From the NCBI RefSeq assembly GCF_022701215.1, contig NZ_CP089976.1, positions 1,800,001 through 1,832,000 on the forward strand: 32,000 nt of DNA, read 5' to 3'. This DNA comes from Moraxella nasovis. Lineage in GTDB: Bacteria > Pseudomonadota > Gammaproteobacteria > Pseudomonadales > Moraxellaceae. Of the stretch, positions 16,974 to 22,288 are shown piece by piece; the first letter of the stretch is position 1, and each line of letters starts with the position of its first letter. A program made the position numbers and the translations under genes. A model generated the notes under the pieces. That model was not told the origin of the DNA. It saw nothing but the letters and a program-made list of their open reading frames with translations, and made no database searches.

Positions 16974-17792
16974 TTAGATAGGTTCTGTTTTTGGGGCTTT
17001 TGGTTGCTCTGTTTTTGGTTTGTCTTCTTCGGTGATGATGTTGGCATTAGCATCGCCAAAACTTAAAACTTCACCAAAGTTTATTTGAATTTTTAAAATA
17101 AGCTGGTTTTCTTTGGTAGTGGCAGTATTTATTTGAGCCTTTTTGATATTATTGGTAAGCACTTTGACATTTTTTAGCCAACGTCCAATCTCAAGATAAA
17201 TAACATCGCCTTTGTGTTCAGTAAAAGGCACGCCTTTAATCTTTACTTGGCTTAAGATAAAAGGAAGCGGGTCTTTTCTAAGGATAGTGCGATACGCCCC
17301 TAGGGCAAACTTAGCGGCAGGTGCTTGCCACCATGTGCGTGAATGCAGCTCAATCACATCTGTGTTACTAATCTGTCTAAGCACAAGTCTTTGGGTGTAG
17401 CGATCAAGCTGAATTTGCACTAACTCAAAATTACTTGCCACACTTGCAAAAATCCCTGCAACATCGACCGTGGTGGATAGTCTTAGCCAGTCATCATGTA
17501 GTTCAAGCTTTAAATCTAGGAGCATACCTACATTATCTACAACAAACTGCTTAAGAGCGTCATTGACCTGCTCTTCGCTTAGTGTGATATAAATCTCATC
17601 AAGAAAGTTATCAGCAGCTGTAGCATAGCTATGCTTAATACTGCCAAGCGTCTGCTGCCAGCTAACAAATAAATCTTCAATGAAATTATCACTGTTAAAG
17701 CTACTGATGTCAGAGATTTTCTGCATTAGAGTAGGCTTGCTGTTATCAAGTGTGGCGTCAGTCTGAACGTGGGTGGTCTTAATGTCAGTCAT
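16974..17792 (-). CDS. Hypothetical protein (about 272 aa), no domain recognised; Lys/Pro/Glu-rich C-terminal tail
   Basis: Long uninterrupted ORF, with the ATG at 17792 (MTDIKTT) preferred over the GTG at 17819. It ends ...EEDKPKTEQPKAPKTEPI. No motif I can assign. Confidence 0.6.
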   Translation of the reverse strand: MTDIKTTHVQTDATLDNSKPTLMQKISDISSFNSDNFIEDLFVSWQQTLGSIKHSYATAADNFLDEIYITLSEEQVNDALKQFVVDNVGMLLDLKLELHDDWLRLSTTVDVAGIFASVASNFELVQIQLDRYTQRLVLRQISNTDVIELHSRTWWQAPAAKFALGAYRTILRKDPLPFILSQVKIKGVPFTEHKGDVIYLEIGRWLKNVKVLTNNIKKAQINTATTKENQLILKIQINFGEVLSFGDANANIITEEDKPKTEQPKAPKTEPI

Positions 17793-17924
17793 GGTAAAAT
17801 CTAAAGTTGCTAAATCCACCCCATTGTAACAAATTTATTTAAAATGTGGCAAATTTTAGTGTTATTTTTGTGATGTTTTTGCGTTGTTTATAACATAAGC
17901 GGCAATTTACAGTATAATATAGGC

Positions 17925-18168
17925 GTGATGGGTGTTTTTAGCCTATTCGTACTACTAGCGTTGCGGGTATACTTTGATGACAAGGTAGCGTTTGAAAAAT
18001 TTAAGAAAAACCCATAACCAGTTTTCCATTGATGGCGGTGGCTATCTGACCTACCTTGCTTTAAGCTGTGTGAACTTACAGCTCATATAGGGGCAATATC
18101 CAAAGGCGGAGTTTAAAAGCACGAGGGAGTATTGATAGATGTAAATAAACCGCTGTATGGCGGTTTTT
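17925..18168 (+). ncRNA. Candidate small transcript of about 240 nt (sRNA, or mRNA for a 29-aa hydrophobic peptide) bounded by a consensus -10 box and an intrinsic terminator
   Basis: A TATAAT box lies at 17913-17918. Internal stems are caaggtag/ctaccttg (about 17981-17988 and 18050-18057) and agctgt/acagct (about 18064-18086). The terminator is ccgc/gcgg (18150-18163) plus T5 (18164-18168). No ORF of 60 aa or more is present. The only plausible small ORF is ATG 17928 to TAA 18017 (MGVFSLFVLLALRVYFDDKVAFEKFKKNP). The RNA family is not recognised. Confidence 0.35.
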
Positions 18169-18331
18169 GATTTGTGAAATAAAATTACAATAATACATAG
18201 CGTCGGTAAAGCCCTAGTGTATTATATGCATCTGCAGATATTGTTACTTTATATCATTTTTTAACTACTATAAACACTCATTACAGAGTTATGAACTCTC
18301 ATAAACCCTAGCAAACATGATTTTTGTGGCT

Positions 18332-18685
18332 TTATAATGATGAAATCAAGTCAGCAATTTTGCTTTGATCGGCTCTGCTATGCTTAATCTTTAAAACATA
18401 AACACATTCGCCCAAAATCTCAAAATAAACAATCACAGGCGGTTTCGGTACAAACAGCTTACGAATTTCACACCCTTTTGTGTAAAAATTCACCGACTTA
18501 CAGCGTCTCGGCATAGTTTTAAGTGTATTGGTTGCAACTTCGATACGCTCCAAAACCATCATCACAACATCGATGTTTTTGGTGGTCTTTGCATAGAATG
18601 AAGCAATGTTATTCAAATCATCTTGTGCGGACTGCTCGTAAATAACACTGTATTTGCGTTCAAAATGCTCTATATGTTCGCTCAT
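18332..18685 (-). CDS. ParE/RelE-superfamily type II toxin
   Basis: 117 aa. The pattern A..DL..I..Y....... then RKLFV...PVIVYFEI..ECVYVLKIKHSRAD matches the ParE/RelE fold signature. It lies 20 nt downstream of an RHH gene. Confidence 0.75.
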   Translation of the reverse strand: MSEHIEHFERKYSVIYEQSAQDDLNNIASFYAKTTKNIDVVMMVLERIEVATNTLKTMPRRCKSVNFYTKGCEIRKLFVPKPPVIVYFEILGECVYVLKIKHSRADQSKIADLISSL

Positions 18686-18705
18686 GATGTGTTCTGTTGC
18701 CGACC

Positions 18706-18990
18706 CTACCTAGCTAAAAACATTTTTGCATACTCTAGGGCATTTTTATGAGCTTCTGACGCACTTATGCCACTTGAACCATTTTCATGTAAATTGTCGC
18801 TAGCTTGCATGATGTCTTTTTCAAGCATTTTTTGGTAATGAAGCTGTTCTTTTACAGCTCTATCGAGCATTTGTACCGCCATATAGTGAATACTGCGGTT
18901 TTCTTTTTCTGCAAGCTCCTGTAATGCCTGCTTGGTTTCCACATCAATTCTAAGGGAAATGGCGGATTTGCCAGTGGTTGCAGTTTGCAT
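18706..18990 (-). CDS. Ribbon-helix-helix (CopG/ParD-like) antitoxin
   Basis: ISLRIDVETKQALQELAEKENRSIHYMAVQMLDRAV is a classic RHH beta-alpha-alpha pattern. The ATG at 18990 is preceded by AGGA at about -9. The ORF-track start at 19041 is probably too long. Confidence 0.75.
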   Translation of the reverse strand: MQTATTGKSAISLRIDVETKQALQELAEKENRSIHYMAVQMLDRAVKEQLHYQKMLEKDIMQASDNLHENGSSGISASEAHKNALEYAKMFLAR

Positions 18991-19021
18991 GATTATCCTA
19001 AAATTAAACCCTTTTGTCTGA

Positions 19022-19057
19022 TGTATCACATTGTAATACAAATGACGACAGAAGTAA
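19022..19057 (-). promoter_or_regulatory. Putative promoter and operator of the RHH/ParE operon
   Basis: On the minus strand, TTACTT (19052-19057) is followed by a 16-nt spacer and then TACAAT (19030-19035). An imperfect 19-bp palindrome TGTATTACAATGTGATACA (19022-19040) overlaps the -10, as expected for RHH autoregulation. Confidence 0.4.
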
Positions 19058-19150
19058 ATTACACACCAAAATCATAATTATCTTAGGTTCTTTTGTGTTA
19101 TCTCTTTTGTTGAAATTTTGCAATAGTTTTAAAACAGCCACAAAAGCCAA

Positions 19151-19380
19151 ATGGAGCTGTATTTAAATTATTTGGCAAAATATGAGCAAGAGACAGACGA
19201 AAATTCACCGATTGGCATTATTTTTGTACATCCAAAAAGAGCGAACAAATTGAGCTTGTGGGGCTAGAAAACAGCGACATTTATATTGCTGAATATATGA
19301 CTGTATTACCACCCAAAGAGTTATTAGAACAAAAATTACATTTGGCGGTAAAGCGGGCAAGGTTAAGGTTTGATGGGTGA
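19151..19380 (+). pseudogene. Truncated, frameshifted remnant of a YhcG/DUF1016-type PDDEXK nuclease gene (C-terminal part only)
   Basis: One frame reads MELYLNYLAKYEQETDENSPIGIIF. After a frame change around the A-run near 19233-19240 it continues KKSEQIELVGLENSDIYIAEYMTVLPPKELLEQKLHLAVKRARLRFDG*. Together these match the conserved C-terminus of DUF1016 proteins (..YLNY....ENPPIGIIL....). The N-terminal about 250 aa of a full-length gene are absent. Confidence 0.6.
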
Positions 19381-19383
19381 TTT

Positions 19384-19417
19384 AAAAAAAAGCCAAGAAT
19401 TAAATCTTGGCTTTTTA
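19384..19417. terminator. Bidirectional hairpin terminator ending the HAD-PRTase-DprA-like operon
   Basis: agccaaga (19391-19398) pairs with tcttggct (19405-19412). It is flanked by A8 on one side and T5 on the other. Confidence 0.8.
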
Positions 19418-19418
19418 T

Positions 19419-20396
19419 TTAGAGTAACCCACCTTGTACTGCTGGTGTAGTATATTTCAACGATTGATTATTCTTTTTAATGGCTTGCAATAGCTCATTA
19501 ATGTCCTGTCTCATATTATTTGGTTGAATAACAATTGGTTTGGGTTGCTCTTGGATAATTTGTCGATTTAAGTCATATTTTGGATTGCTTCGGTGAATAT
19601 TATCGTAAATTACCGCTTGCAAAAGCCCATATTTTTTGGCTTTCTCTAATGCGTGCCGAGCACCACTATCATTACCCTGATCATTTTGGGCATAGCTTGC
19701 AGATAATAAAACACAATCGCTATACAATGCTTGCAATCTGTCTCTTTCGATATAACGAGAGATAATTTTGCGTTGGTCCGTCGGTGTTGTTAAATATTCT
19801 GTAACTAGCAATCCACCATTTTCAACAATCTCTTCTGCTAATTGTTTGTTAGCGGCAGGTTGAATATTATTTAATGGACTGGGTAAAATTGCAAGCGTTA
19901 AACCACCTGATTGCAATGTCTGCCTATGGGCAATTTCATCGCAGCCTTTTGCTAAGCCACTCACAATAACTACATTTTGCTTTACCAATTCATCGACAAT
20001 TGCCCTTTCATCTTGCTCGGTAACATCATCAGGATTAAGCAAACCAATCACCGCAATATTGGTATTATTTTTGGATAAAAGTGATAAATCACCTTTATAA
20101 AATAATGCGATAGGCTTATCTCCATCAGTCACTTTACCACGATATACAGGAAATTTACTGTCGTGCAATGCTACCAAACCATCACAACTTTCACCCAACG
20201 CCAAAATTTTTTGTTCAATAAAATCTCGTTTTTGTTTAAAATCTTCTTCTGTTGCCGTTGGATATTTTACAGCAATTTTCTCTACTATGCTTTCTAGGCA
20301 GTCTGTTGCTAAAATATTTTTATGAACCCACGCTTTGCCGATACCTCTGTACAATAAGGTGGTCAGAATATTTAATGCATTATCTGTGTATTTCAT
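19419..20396 (-). CDS. DprA/Smf-like (SLOG-superfamily Rossmann) protein; putative antitoxin/sensor component (ShosA-like)
   Basis: The core aligns by eye to the DprA Rossmann domain: LFYKGDLSLL, IAVIG, VIVSGLAKGCDEIAH (compare SGlA.GID..AH), GGLTLAILPSPLNNIQPAANKQLAEEIVENGGLLVTEY, RYIERDRLQALYSDCVLLSAS and DSGARHALEKAKKYG. The N-terminus has a GIG helix-hairpin-helix-like motif (LLYRGIGKAW). It sits 9 nt after the PRTase stop. Confidence 0.75.
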   Translation of the reverse strand: MKYTDNALNILTTLLYRGIGKAWVHKNILATDCLESIVEKIAVKYPTATEEDFKQKRDFIEQKILALGESCDGLVALHDSKFPVYRGKVTDGDKPIALFYKGDLSLLSKNNTNIAVIGLLNPDDVTEQDERAIVDELVKQNVVIVSGLAKGCDEIAHRQTLQSGGLTLAILPSPLNNIQPAANKQLAEEIVENGGLLVTEYLTTPTDQRKIISRYIERDRLQALYSDCVLLSASYAQNDQGNDSGARHALEKAKKYGLLQAVIYDNIHRSNPKYDLNRQIIQEQPKPIVIQPNNMRQDINELLQAIKKNNQSLKYTTPAVQGGLL

Positions 20397-20405
20397 TATG
20401 TTGCC

Positions 20406-21086
20406 TTAGATAAATTCGATTGTGCTTCTTTTTGTAAATTGGAAATGTCTCGACTTTAAAACCGTTCTTGCAATAGCAAATAGCGTAACACTTTTTGCTC
20501 CGCAATCCAACAATGCCTGTAAGACATCTTCATCAATATTGATACTTTTTGTATAAATATCATCAATCAATAAAATATGCTTACCTGCAATTTCTGGCGA
20601 TAATTGACAAGTGTCTTTAGTGATGCCAACATAAGGCATATCGCCATCATTTTCTATACTTAAACATCTCCCATTAAGATGGGTTGTTCTGGTGTTTCTC
20701 GTTCTGATGATAAAGTCAATACCATCACCAAATAAATTTTGATTAAGTTTATCTGATCCTACAATAGCTTGAAATAATATTCTAAAAATCAATTGATATT
20801 CAGAATAAGTCTCTAATGCTTTTGCTCTAGGTACAACACAAATATATAATTTATCACTTAAATCTAGTTGCTGATAAATATAATTTAACTCATCAATAAG
20901 ATTGTACTTTAACGCTTTCACAGCACTCATTAACTCATTCTTGGGAGTTTTATTAAAGGTGTTTTTTAACGTATTAAGATAATCTGGATTATTGGGTTGT
21001 TGATAGCCCACATAATCCGTACGATAAAAACCTTGTACATTCTGATGTAAAAAATCATTACGTTCAACAATAAATTTATGCAGCAT
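20406..21086 (-). CDS. ComF-type phosphoribosyltransferase-domain protein; putative toxin/effector (ShosT-like)
   Basis: Has a PRTase acidic motif HILLIDDIYT followed by GAKSVTLFAIART. ComF-like upstream elements are ICVVPRAKA and IIRTRNTRTTHL. The ATG at 21086 has GGAG 9 nt upstream, which gives an 11-nt overlap with the HAD gene. Longer ORF-track starts are less likely. Confidence 0.7.
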   Translation of the reverse strand: MLHKFIVERNDFLHQNVQGFYRTDYVGYQQPNNPDYLNTLKNTFNKTPKNELMSAVKALKYNLIDELNYIYQQLDLSDKLYICVVPRAKALETYSEYQLIFRILFQAIVGSDKLNQNLFGDGIDFIIRTRNTRTTHLNGRCLSIENDGDMPYVGITKDTCQLSPEIAGKHILLIDDIYTKSINIDEDVLQALLDCGAKSVTLFAIARTVLKSRHFQFTKRSTIEFI

Positions 21087-21660
21087 AAAAATAATCTCCA
21101 TCTGTATAAACAATCTGATGTGCTAAAACCCCTGCCTTAAGAGCATTTTCAATTTCTGTTTTACAATTTTCAAAAACAAAAACTTGGTTAGCACTTAATG
21201 CTAATAAATCCAAAGCATAAGCATATTTATTTTGGGGGTGGCAGATAATTCCTTTAAATAAATACTGTAGCTGATGATATTGCAGCGTTTGCTTTATACG
21301 CTGTTCATCGCCTGAACTTACCAAATAAAAATGATAGTTTTTATAAAACTTCTCTATAAATTTCAACAAATTATCATTTACTTTTGTTTTTGATAAAAAC
21401 ATCGGATATATCTGCCTCTTACGCTTTACCACCCAATCTATTTGCTCATTGGACAAACCAAATTCCTTTAATATTATCTTTGTTAATCTCTTGCTATAAT
21501 GTAGATTTTTTGCATTAAAATTAGACAACTCTCTCAGGGCATTTAAATACGACTGCGTATTAGCAATATCGGTATCAACCAATGTTCCATCTAAATCAAT
21601 AAATATTACACTGTTAGAGTTGATTTTTTTACCAAAATCGTCTAGCATAAGTTGTTTCAT
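21076..21660 (-). CDS. HAD-superfamily (subfamily IA-like, capped) phosphatase
   Basis: Motif I is FIDLDGTLVDT (DxDGT nucleophile), motif II is YLVSSG, a conserved Lys candidate is NKY, and motif IV-like is VFVFENCKTEIENALKAG. A helical cap insert lies between motifs I and II. Confidence 0.75.
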   Translation of the reverse strand: MKQLMLDDFGKKINSNSVIFIDLDGTLVDTDIANTQSYLNALRELSNFNAKNLHYSKRLTKIILKEFGLSNEQIDWVVKRKRQIYPMFLSKTKVNDNLLKFIEKFYKNYHFYLVSSGDEQRIKQTLQYHQLQYLFKGIICHPQNKYAYALDLLALSANQVFVFENCKTEIENALKAGVLAHQIVYTDGDYFYAA

Positions 21661-21671
21661 AATGGTTAATT

Positions 21672-21699
21672 ATTGTATAAATTTCTGTACCGCAATCAA
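21672..21699 (-). promoter_or_regulatory. Putative sigma70 promoter of the HAD-PRTase-DprA-like operon
   Basis: On the minus strand, TTGATT (21694-21699) is followed by a 16-nt spacer and then TACAAT (21672-21677). The -10 ends only 11 nt before the HAD ATG. That implies a very short or leaderless 5' UTR, and no SD is visible. Confidence 0.4.
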
Positions 21700-21758
21700 C
21701 CAACAACTCCGACTTTTCACACCCACTTTTTCATCATCTCGCCCACAAAAGGGGCTTT

Positions 21759-22103
21759 ATGAACATCACAAAAACCTTGTCAATCTTAGAAAAGAAAACC
21801 GTCTGACCCAAGGGCAAATGGCAGAAAAATTATAAATGCCCAAAAATGGTTATATAAAGCTCGAGCGTGGTGAAAATAGAATTACCATTGAGCATTTATT
21901 TAAAATCGCCCAAGAGTTTAATATTGATGTTAGTGAGTTATTAAAAGAACATAAAGATATTATTTTTTTTATTGGGCGATAATAATACAAATTACGCCAA
22001 CCGTTACTATGGTGAGACAACCGCACAAATAGAAAAACTAGAACTCATCATCGCCCAAAAAGACAAAGAAATCGCATCATTAAGACAGCTGCTTGATAAA
22101 TAA
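21759..22103 (+). pseudogene. Disrupted XRE-family HTH regulator gene, divergent from the three-gene operon
   Basis: An ATG at 21759 opens a frame that stops after 15 codons. The HTH (HKNLVNLRKENRLTQGQMAEKL*MPKNGYIKLERGENRITIEHLFKIAQEFNIDVSELL) lies in a different frame and contains an in-frame TAA at 21833-21835. The coiled-coil tail (LGDNNTNYANRYYGETTAQIEKLELIIAQKDKEIASLRQLLDK*) returns to the ATG frame after a T8 run at 21963-21970. Confidence 0.6.
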
Positions 22104-22193
22104 TGAGTGAGTATTCATTCATTTTCTAAGCCAAACCAATTTTTACTAAGCATTGCAGTTTGGTTATTTGATTTGTTATTATGCTAAAAGCCA

Positions 22194-22220
22194 AAACCAC
22201 GCCTAGACGTGGTTTTTATT
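22194..22220. terminator. Hairpin terminator at the islet/dpp boundary
   Basis: aaaccacg (22194-22201) pairs with cgtggttt (22208-22215), followed by a T-run. It is well placed to end the plus-strand XRE remnant. A second small hairpin agtcaa/ttgact (22264-22281) sits immediately after the dppF stop. Confidence 0.65.
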
Positions 22221-22288
22221 ATTCTAAATTAAGGTAAATCAGTAAGATTAGTTAAAAATTTCTAGTCAAGTTGTTTTGACTATGACCT

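Follow-up and report, generated by a model that had tools for sequence, protein, structure and literature searches.

A ShosTA-like locus of Moraxella nasovis in which the toxin is probably made as two polypeptides

What is a HAD-family hydrolase gene doing in an operon that otherwise resembles a known toxin-antitoxin pair? The question is raised by a locus of Moraxella nasovis (contig NZ_CP089976.1, positions 1,800,001 to 1,832,000 of the forward strand; this whole stretch of 32,000 nucleotides is called the window, and coordinates below refer to it). Three minus-strand genes of the window encode, in order of transcription, a HAD hydrolase, a phosphoribosyltransferase (PRTase) and a DprA-like protein. 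The last two correspond to ShosT and ShosA of the E. coli ShosTA system, also known as the ‘DprA-PRTase’ system of a P2-like prophage hotspot (Kimelman 2012; Rousset 2022, PMC9122126; Millman 2022). A first-pass annotation of this DNA took the hydrolase for an extra enzymatic gene and the locus for a distinct three-component system. That proposal did not hold, since ShosT itself is already a HAD-fold hydrolase joined to a PRTase, and HAD-PRTase fusions are common among relatives of the window proteins. We consider it likely that the locus is a member of the ShosTA family (type IV toxin-antitoxin/abortive-infection anti-phage systems) in which ShosT is made as two polypeptides.

The three genes are a real, intact operon, and the gene coordinates and junctions described in the first-pass annotation were all confirmed in the sequence. 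The HAD stop codon (21076-21078) and the PRTase start overlap by 11 nt, with the two open reading frames (ORFs) in different frames, and a Shine-Dalgarno GGAG lies inside the HAD gene, 9 nt upstream of the PRTase ATG. Between the PRTase stop and the ATG of the DprA-like gene there are exactly 9 nt (20397-20405), and these two genes are adjacent, co-oriented and served by one common terminator. The longest PRTase ORF extends over 20406..21113; we chose the ATG at 21086 (21084-21086), which fits the family consensus N-terminus M-x-x-F-x-I. The resulting product is the NCBI protein P0001 (226 aa, 100% identity and coverage), and P0001 and a second NCBI protein, P0121, are both 100% identical to window proteins. 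The strong downstream terminator reported earlier is also present. Its hairpin and U-run stand directly 3' of the DprA-like gene, with 16 predicted pairs that overlap the stop codon of that gene and a folding energy of -16.4 kcal/mol (z = -6.07) that was reached by none of 200 shuffles. This terminator could act in both directions. The promoter-like element noted upstream exists as a 9/12 consensus match, but it is no more than a candidate: the region holds 18 such matches against 19 expected from shuffles, and because this count does not exceed the shuffles, it is the position of the element that speaks for it.

The first-pass assignments of the three proteins were supported by Pfam, PADLOC and structure prediction with AlphaFold2 (AF2) followed by Foldseek searches, as was the grouping of the PRTase and the DprA-like protein with ShosTA, for which the PADLOC models and the nearest structures (8zvd and 9vzo) agree. 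The DprA-like protein is a ShosA-type antitoxin homologue. It matches the PADLOC ShosA model PDLC03961 with E = 2.3e-45 and Pfam DNA_processg_A with E = 3.1e-35, and in a phmmer search of PDB sequences it found 9vzo (‘DprA-like antitoxin protein ShosA’; E = 4.2e-18) and 8zva (E = 6.6e-18). For the PRTase the Pfam match is weak (E = 0.03), while the PADLOC ShosT model PDLC03962 matches with E = 9.3e-9. Its AF2 model has the PRTase fold (predicted local distance difference test score, pLDDT, 88.4), and the best structural matches of this model in the PDB are the ShosT entries 8zvd, 8zvc and 8zvb (E = 1.6e-4, probability 1.00), followed by HGXPRT (3ozf), ComF (7p0h) and further HGPRTs. The loop for phosphoribosyl pyrophosphate (PRPP), ILLIDDIYT, contains D175 and D176, which are invariant in 35 homologues, and hhalign aligned this DD loop with residues 304-367 of E. 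coli ShosT, which contain D331 and D332. In E. coli ShosT, the D331A/D332A substitution abolishes toxicity (PMC11961720). Thus, the protein is a ShosT-type PRTase with a PRPP-binding DD loop.

A PRTase beside a DprA-like protein could instead be the competence pair ComFC and DprA of a transformable Moraxella, in an operon devoted to DNA uptake rather than to conflict. The two proteins are known to work together in transformation, the PRTase model has ComF among its five best structural matches, and there are weak NCBIfam matches to comF, GntX and dprA. These matches are, however, far below the cutoffs: the DprA-like protein scores 113.2 bits with the dprA equivalog model TIGR00732, which requires 191.15, the score for PRK10736 is 96.5 against 495, and that for comF (TIGR00201) is 17.8 against 233.55. 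The ShosA and ShosT models of PADLOC and the ShosA and ShosT structures match better. In addition, the genes lie in a low-GC islet together with a toxin-antitoxin pair and gene remnants, and the cassette is distributed patchily across phyla, including one archaeal metagenome-assembled genome (MAG). On these grounds we rejected a competence operon, which we regard as very improbable.

The remaining gene encodes a HAD-IA-type (C1-capped) phosphohydrolase. Pfam HAD_2 matches with E = 1.6e-10, at 41.9 bits well above the gathering score of 23.8, and the AF2 model (pLDDT 94.6) has a helical cap insert between motifs I and II (residues 31-105). In a Foldseek comparison of this model with the PDB, HAD-IA phosphatases lead, with E values down to 8e-11, and the best 50 of 286 significant matches are all canonical capped HADs. 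The nearest structures are sugar-phosphate, nucleotide and phosphoglycolate phosphatases together with the pyrophosphatase BT2127. Among 43 homologues, motif I, FIDLDGT (D22, D24, T26), shows no variation, and the same holds for R58 and K81; motif II is S115, motif III is K145 and motif IV is a variant FEN..E (E164), with K145 and E164 near-invariant in the same set. With motifs I-IV, a Rossmannoid core and a helical cap, the protein belongs to subfamily IA (C1 cap) of the HAD superfamily.

How does this protein relate to ShosT? E. coli ShosT (424 aa) consists of an N-terminal Rossmann-type hydrolase (residues 1-164) and a C-terminal PRTase (residues 165-424) (PMC11961720; PMC12961424). The hydrolase domain has Mg-independent pyrophosphatase activity in vitro and has been likened to the HAD-superfamily pyrophosphatase BT2127 (PMC11961720). 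A second ShosT, that of the Pseudomonas Pf phage PfAC02a (OR790968; PMC11878078), was deposited as ‘HAD family hydrolase/phosphoribosyltransferase (ShosT)’; it matches HAD_2 with E = 3.9e-23, and its N-terminal HAD (L087:1408-1890) keeps an intact DLDNT. When profiles were compared with hhalign, the HAD family of the window matched the N-terminal domain of the Pf ShosT with a probability of 94.8% (E = 4.8e-8) and the N-terminal profile of E. coli-type ShosT proteins with a probability of 57.6% (E = 1e-4), the latter with motifs II-IV in register. We also recovered the ShosT of phage P2_4C9 (L086:1199-2473), which matches the PADLOC model PDLC03012 with E = 3e-294 and shows weak Pfam Hydrolase and HAD_2 matches at residues 30-133. 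A HAD-fold hydrolase module thus accompanies the PRTase in the window as it does in the two ShosT proteins examined, in both of which it is N-terminal, except that here it is encoded by the upstream gene. Because of the two-domain structures of ShosT, the HAD alignments and the fusions within the family (see below), the simplest reading is that ShosT is encoded here by two translationally coupled genes, and that the HAD gene is the separately encoded counterpart of the N-terminal hydrolase/pyrophosphatase domain, part of the known ShosT domain set and not an extra enzyme.

If this is so, then the HAD gene should travel with the PRTase gene. The opposite possibility is that it encodes an unrelated housekeeping phosphatase that happens to stand beside a two-gene ShosTA pair. 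We scanned genomes, one for each GTDB species, with the PRTase profile and obtained 80 loci, distributed over Bacteroidota, several proteobacterial classes, Firmicutes, Patescibacteria, Chloroflexota, Planctomycetota, Spirochaetota, Campylobacterota and one Methanosarcinales MAG. The HAD family of the window accompanies the PRTase in 63 of these 80 loci, so that the conserved synteny predicted in the first-pass annotation was borne out. It is encoded directly upstream on the same strand in 53/80, forms an in-frame fusion with the PRTase in 4/80 (L009, L033, L053 and L083; 401-423 aa) and lies 3' of the DprA-like gene in 6/80, all of them Firmicutes loci (L027, L050, L061, L064, L066 and L072). 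In this Firmicutes subclade the order is PRTase, DprA-like, HAD, and the HAD protein is shorter (~173 aa); most proteins returned by a search with the HAD profile were of similar length (~170 aa). The DprA-like gene is 3' of the PRTase gene in 79/80 loci. A word-indexed search of a 5.8-billion-protein collection with the single HAD sequence returned three proteins, and both of those from outside the window come from HAD-PRTase-DprA triads. The triad is found in the metagenome loci L001/L002 and L003, reached through the HAD protein, and in L005, reached through the closest PRTase homologue. The three-protein result had suggested that the HAD association is rare, which was ruled out by scanning the ORFs beside PRTase homologues.

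Gene fusion gives a second kind of link. When 1.84 billion cluster representatives were searched exhaustively with HMMER, using the PRTase profile, 469 family members were recovered. Among the best 150 of these, 20 are fusions with the HAD family of the window (E = 1e-32 to 1e-52 over the full length) and three are PRTase-DprA fusions. When 10 N-terminally extended PRTase proteins were tested with Pfam (E <= 0.001), HAD_2 was found on 6; of the other 4, P0242 is a fusion according to the family hidden Markov model (HMM), in P0231 and P0310 neither method found a HAD, and P0322 has other domains. In P0322 (622 aa), the PRTase domain is C-terminal to a cold-shock domain and Sel1 repeats. In two further cases, from Christensenellales/Evtepia MAGs (L050:1684-5349 and L066:2866-6621), the PRTase stands at the C-terminus of ORFs of ~1220-1250 aa, which may be ORF run-ons.

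The three families have also changed together. Over 61 loci, the Mantel correlations of pairwise identities are 0.71 for HAD and PRTase, 0.72 for PRTase and DprA-like protein and 0.84 for HAD and DprA-like protein, values reached by 0 of 2000 permutations, and the HAD protein evolves fastest, with a mean identity of 35% where the other two have 49% and 53%. What could be said for a housekeeping phosphatase is that PADLOC gives no match for the HAD and that nine related PRTase-DprA loci have no HAD gene. Against it stand the adjacency or fusion of the same HAD family in 63 of 80 genomes across many phyla, the in-frame fusions among the best relatives, the correlation of the HAD with both partners, the overlap of the HAD stop with the PRTase start together with a Shine-Dalgarno sequence inside the HAD gene, and the triads around both non-window proteins of the HAD search. 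A chance neighbour was therefore rejected by the synteny and fusion data, and we give a housekeeping role next to no credence. Judged from these sequence comparisons, the HAD gene is a genuine conserved partner.

Several observations weigh against a split ShosT. First, the similarity is low: the PRTase shares 14% identity with ShosT, with a template modelling (TM) score of 0.48 in Foldseek. When the single PRTase sequence, its 35-sequence profile and the fused protein of L009 were run against PDB sequences with phmmer or hmmsearch, ShosT was not reached; nor was it ever reached from the single HAD sequence or the 43-sequence HAD profile, and hhalign found no match between the HAD profile and the single E. 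coli ShosT sequence. The link between the window proteins and ShosT needed structure comparison for the PRTase and, for the HAD, profile-profile comparison via the Pf-phage ShosT. Second, 17 of the 80 loci lack the HAD. Six of these end no more than 700 bp upstream of the PRTase gene and two have a truncated PRTase, which leaves nine true absences, with an intact PRTase and enough upstream sequence, in which the family HMM was also negative; judging from these nine loci, the hydrolase is dispensable for the core pair. Third, the gene order differs, with the toxin first in the window and DprA first in the E. coli P2 system. Finally, the window HAD has a full C1 cap and a DxDxT motif, whereas the N-terminal domain of E. 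coli ShosT is short and cap-less, with FSIAD in place of motif I. Taken at the sequence level, these differences may mean that the window HAD and the E. coli hydrolase module differ in chemistry, or that HADs were recruited independently.

The last point deserves closer attention. The N-terminal domains of E. coli-type ShosT proteins (L086:1199-1700 and L088-L100) have lost the Asp nucleophile of motif I (FSIAD or FSLRD) and retain motif II (TN), motif III (K92) and D121. The R56A substitution in E. coli ShosT reduces toxicity marginally (PMC11961720). A motif without the nucleophile fits this marginal effect and the reported Mg-independent activity. Since the split clade keeps DxDxT and the cap where E. 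coli has lost the nucleophile, the hydrolase may be more important there or may differ in substrate, and the motifs suggest that the chemistry of the hydrolase carries more weight in this clade than one would judge from the E. coli prototype.

There is a further possibility for these observations, one already raised in the first-pass annotation. The module could be the same ShosTA-like one, with a HAD that is a true small-molecule phosphatase acting not on pyrophosphate (PPi) but on PRPP or on the PRTase product, which it would convert from a nucleoside monophosphate-like to a nucleoside-like compound. We think this unlikely, although it deserves to be kept in mind, and hold the same view of its corollary, that the toxic or antiviral output would be the dephosphorylated nucleoside-like compound and the E. 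coli prototype a degenerate derivative of a two-enzyme pathway. Such a role is favoured by the complete catalytic set (D22, D24, T26, K145, E164) and the full C1 cap with the invariant basic residues R58 and K81, by the loss of the nucleophile in E. coli ShosT, where R56A barely affects toxicity, and by the sugar-phosphate, nucleotide and phosphoglycolate phosphatases found besides BT2127 among the nearest structures. It would also suit the finding that no tested purine bound E. coli ShosT (PMC11961720). However, BT2127 is itself C1-capped and hydrolyses PPi, so that a cap and a DxD motif are no argument against a pyrophosphatase; PPi hydrolysis is the only activity that has been reported from experiments on the hydrolase domain of any ShosT; and the substrate specificity of a HAD is not readable from its sequence. 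A phosphatase of this kind is thus less parsimonious than the published PPi-hydrolysis role.

For a split ShosT, a course of events can be proposed in which toxicity, the pyrophosphatase role, the antitoxin mechanism and the anti-phage function are drawn from the literature. By analogy with E. coli ShosT, the PRTase would be the toxic effector, binding PRPP and transferring the phosphoribosyl group to an acceptor. The HAD would most likely remove a phosphorylated product of this reaction, PPi being the published candidate, and removal of PPi would pull the transfer forward and so raise toxicity. PRTase activity would then lead to a purine or nucleotide imbalance and, through it, to damage in DNA replication. 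If ShosA works here as in E. coli, it would neutralise the damage indirectly, through binding of single-stranded DNA and RecA-dependent recombination and repair, and protection would fail once phage infection depletes or diverts ShosA. The single-stranded DNA/RecA mechanism of ShosA and its loss or diversion on infection were described for E. coli systems (PMC11961720; PMC12961424), and neutralisation of ShosT by ShosA without direct binding, like phage protection, is known only for E. coli systems.

Fusion also occurs between toxin and antitoxin. PRTase-DprA in-frame fusions of ~540 aa were seen at L015:2484-4115 and L058:5998-7638 and in P0240, P0297 and P0330; they come from a Leptospira MAG, a WOR-3 MAG and metagenomes, and in both genome loci a separate HAD gene precedes the fusion. 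Such proteins sit awkwardly with a model in which the toxin is set free because its antitoxin is unstable.

What does a split ShosT add to the known system? In the open-access literature we found no description of a separately encoded HAD with a PRTase and a DprA-like protein, and no PADLOC 2.0.0 model detects the HAD gene, in keeping with the earlier expectation that the three-gene form is not already catalogued. Because there is no such model, annotation pipelines can be expected to recognise two of the genes and to give the third only the generic label ‘HAD hydrolase’. The split ShosT is nevertheless an undescribed but evolutionarily trivial variant of a known system, related to it by gene fission or fusion. 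It would be wrong to regard the locus as a new three-component defence system, since the domain set is the same and is merely divided among three polypeptides instead of two. The split form appears to be the commonest arrangement in the clade (53 of the 80 representative genomes, one archaeal MAG in the sample included). Its value lies in being a natural separation-of-function system, in which the hydrolase and the PRTase are independently expressible, mutable and assayable. This makes it useful for ShosT chemistry, namely the acceptor of the PRTase and the role of the hydrolase, given that no tested purine was bound and that the pyrophosphatase mutant had a marginal effect. The invariant DxDxT of the split clade, set against the lost nucleophile of E. 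coli, bears on how much weight the hydrolase chemistry should be given there.

The features of the locus and its surroundings are collected in Table 1. As the first-pass annotation had noted, the operon lies in an AT-rich islet beside a toxin-antitoxin pair and a nuclease remnant: GC is 0.29-0.40 from ~17000 to 22250, compared with 0.45-0.48 in the flanks, and the islet sits between ABC-transporter genes. A search of the islet boundaries gave no tRNA, no integrase and no convincing flanking direct repeats. The ParE/RHH pair had no PADLOC match, and the ORF at the islet edge had neither a Pfam nor a PADLOC match. The remnant of a YhcG-type nuclease ends at the bidirectional terminator that it shares with the DprA-like gene.

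Table 1. Features of the ShosTA-like operon and its low-GC surroundings (window coordinates)
Feature	Position	Strand	Remarks
HAD hydrolase gene	21076..21660	-	194 aa ORF; NCBI call is 190 aa, from the second Met
ShosT-type PRTase gene	20406..21086	-	226 aa; predicted toxic effector
ShosA-type DprA-like gene	19419..20396	-	325 aa; predicted antitoxin
Shine-Dalgarno GGAG for PRTase	21096..21099	-	within HAD gene; read from sequence
Intrinsic terminator	19383..19421	-	12-bp core stem, 3' arm into U-rich tract; RNA fold
Sigma-70-like promoter candidate TTGATT-16-TACAAT	21672..21699	-	upstream of HAD gene; 9/12 consensus match
Divergent XRE/HTH_3 regulator pseudogene	21759..22103	+	reconstructed protein matches HTH_3, E = 5.7e-11
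YhcG-type PDDEXK nuclease C-terminal remnant	~19150-19380	+	frameshifted; Pfam YhcG_C E = 1.6e-5, joined fragments
ParE/RHH toxin-antitoxin pair	18332-19041	-	ParE-family toxin 117 aa, Pfam E = 2.4e-6; upstream RHH/CopG-type antitoxin 111 aa
ORF without family match	16974-17819	-	281 aa; islet edge

The regulator pseudogene upstream of the operon has three lesions: its reading frame shifts within an A5 run after codon 5 and again near 21975, and a TAA occurs in frame at 21833-21835. Intact XRE orthologues, likewise divergent and directly upstream of the HAD gene, are present in L005 (E = 2e-42), L006, L007 and L001, and this arrangement suggests that a divergent XRE protein, a probable repressor, normally goes with the cassette in the Moraxella-type clade. 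With two frameshifts and an in-frame stop, the probable repressor is therefore inactivated here while the three effector genes are intact. Loss of this repressor might derepress the toxin-antitoxin operon.

It remains to place the locus among known systems. PsyrTA/RqlHI likewise combines a DprA-like antitoxin with a toxin that contains a PRTase domain, but PsyrT is a large RecQ-like helicase-PRTase (model of 689 positions). The window PRTase has no helicase domain and matches only positions 640-687 of that model (E = 0.0023), and the PsyrA model matches the DprA-like protein (E = 1.8e-16) much more weakly than does that of ShosA; membership in PsyrTA/RqlHI was ruled out on these grounds. The ComFC-DprA pair of natural transformation is similar in that a PRTase-fold protein is paired with a DprA Rossmann-fold protein, and differs in that the window proteins score below all equivalog cutoffs, are encoded within an island and have a HAD gene as partner.

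Closer are the HAD-PRTase fusions of the same clade (e.g., those of L009, L033, L053 and L083, and P0236, P0244 and P0250), which are built from the same HAD and PRTase families as a single polypeptide of ~390-425 aa where the window has two genes. The DprA-like gene follows in the four genome loci. These fusions carry no annotation beyond an occasional name given by the source. The ShosTA of PfAC02a shares with the window the order ShosT then ShosA, an upstream helix-turn-helix (HTH) repressor gene and an intact HAD motif I. Unlike in the window, its ShosT is a fused protein of 478 aa with C-terminal zinc ribbons, and it has a short insert in place of the full HAD cap. In PfAC02a, the fused ShosTA adjoins a Kiwa system (KwaA/KwaB; L087:3842-5247), so that the two form a compact defence cluster on this filamentous phage.

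The reference for all of these is E. coli ShosTA, for which structures of ShosT (8ZVB-D) and ShosA (8ZVA and 9VZO) have been solved and in which ShosT is a single polypeptide in a two-gene system, as ShosTA is described throughout the literature that we read; the window has three genes. The domains are shared, namely a DprA-like protein, a HAD-fold hydrolase and a non-canonical PRTase with a DD loop for PRPP; both systems are matched by the PADLOC ShosT and ShosA models, and E. coli ShosT and ShosA are the nearest solved structures for the PRTase and the DprA-like protein of the window. What sets the window apart is that it encodes the hydrolase and the PRTase in two translationally coupled genes, whose products of 194 and 226 aa together (420 aa) compare with the 424-aa protein of E. 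coli.

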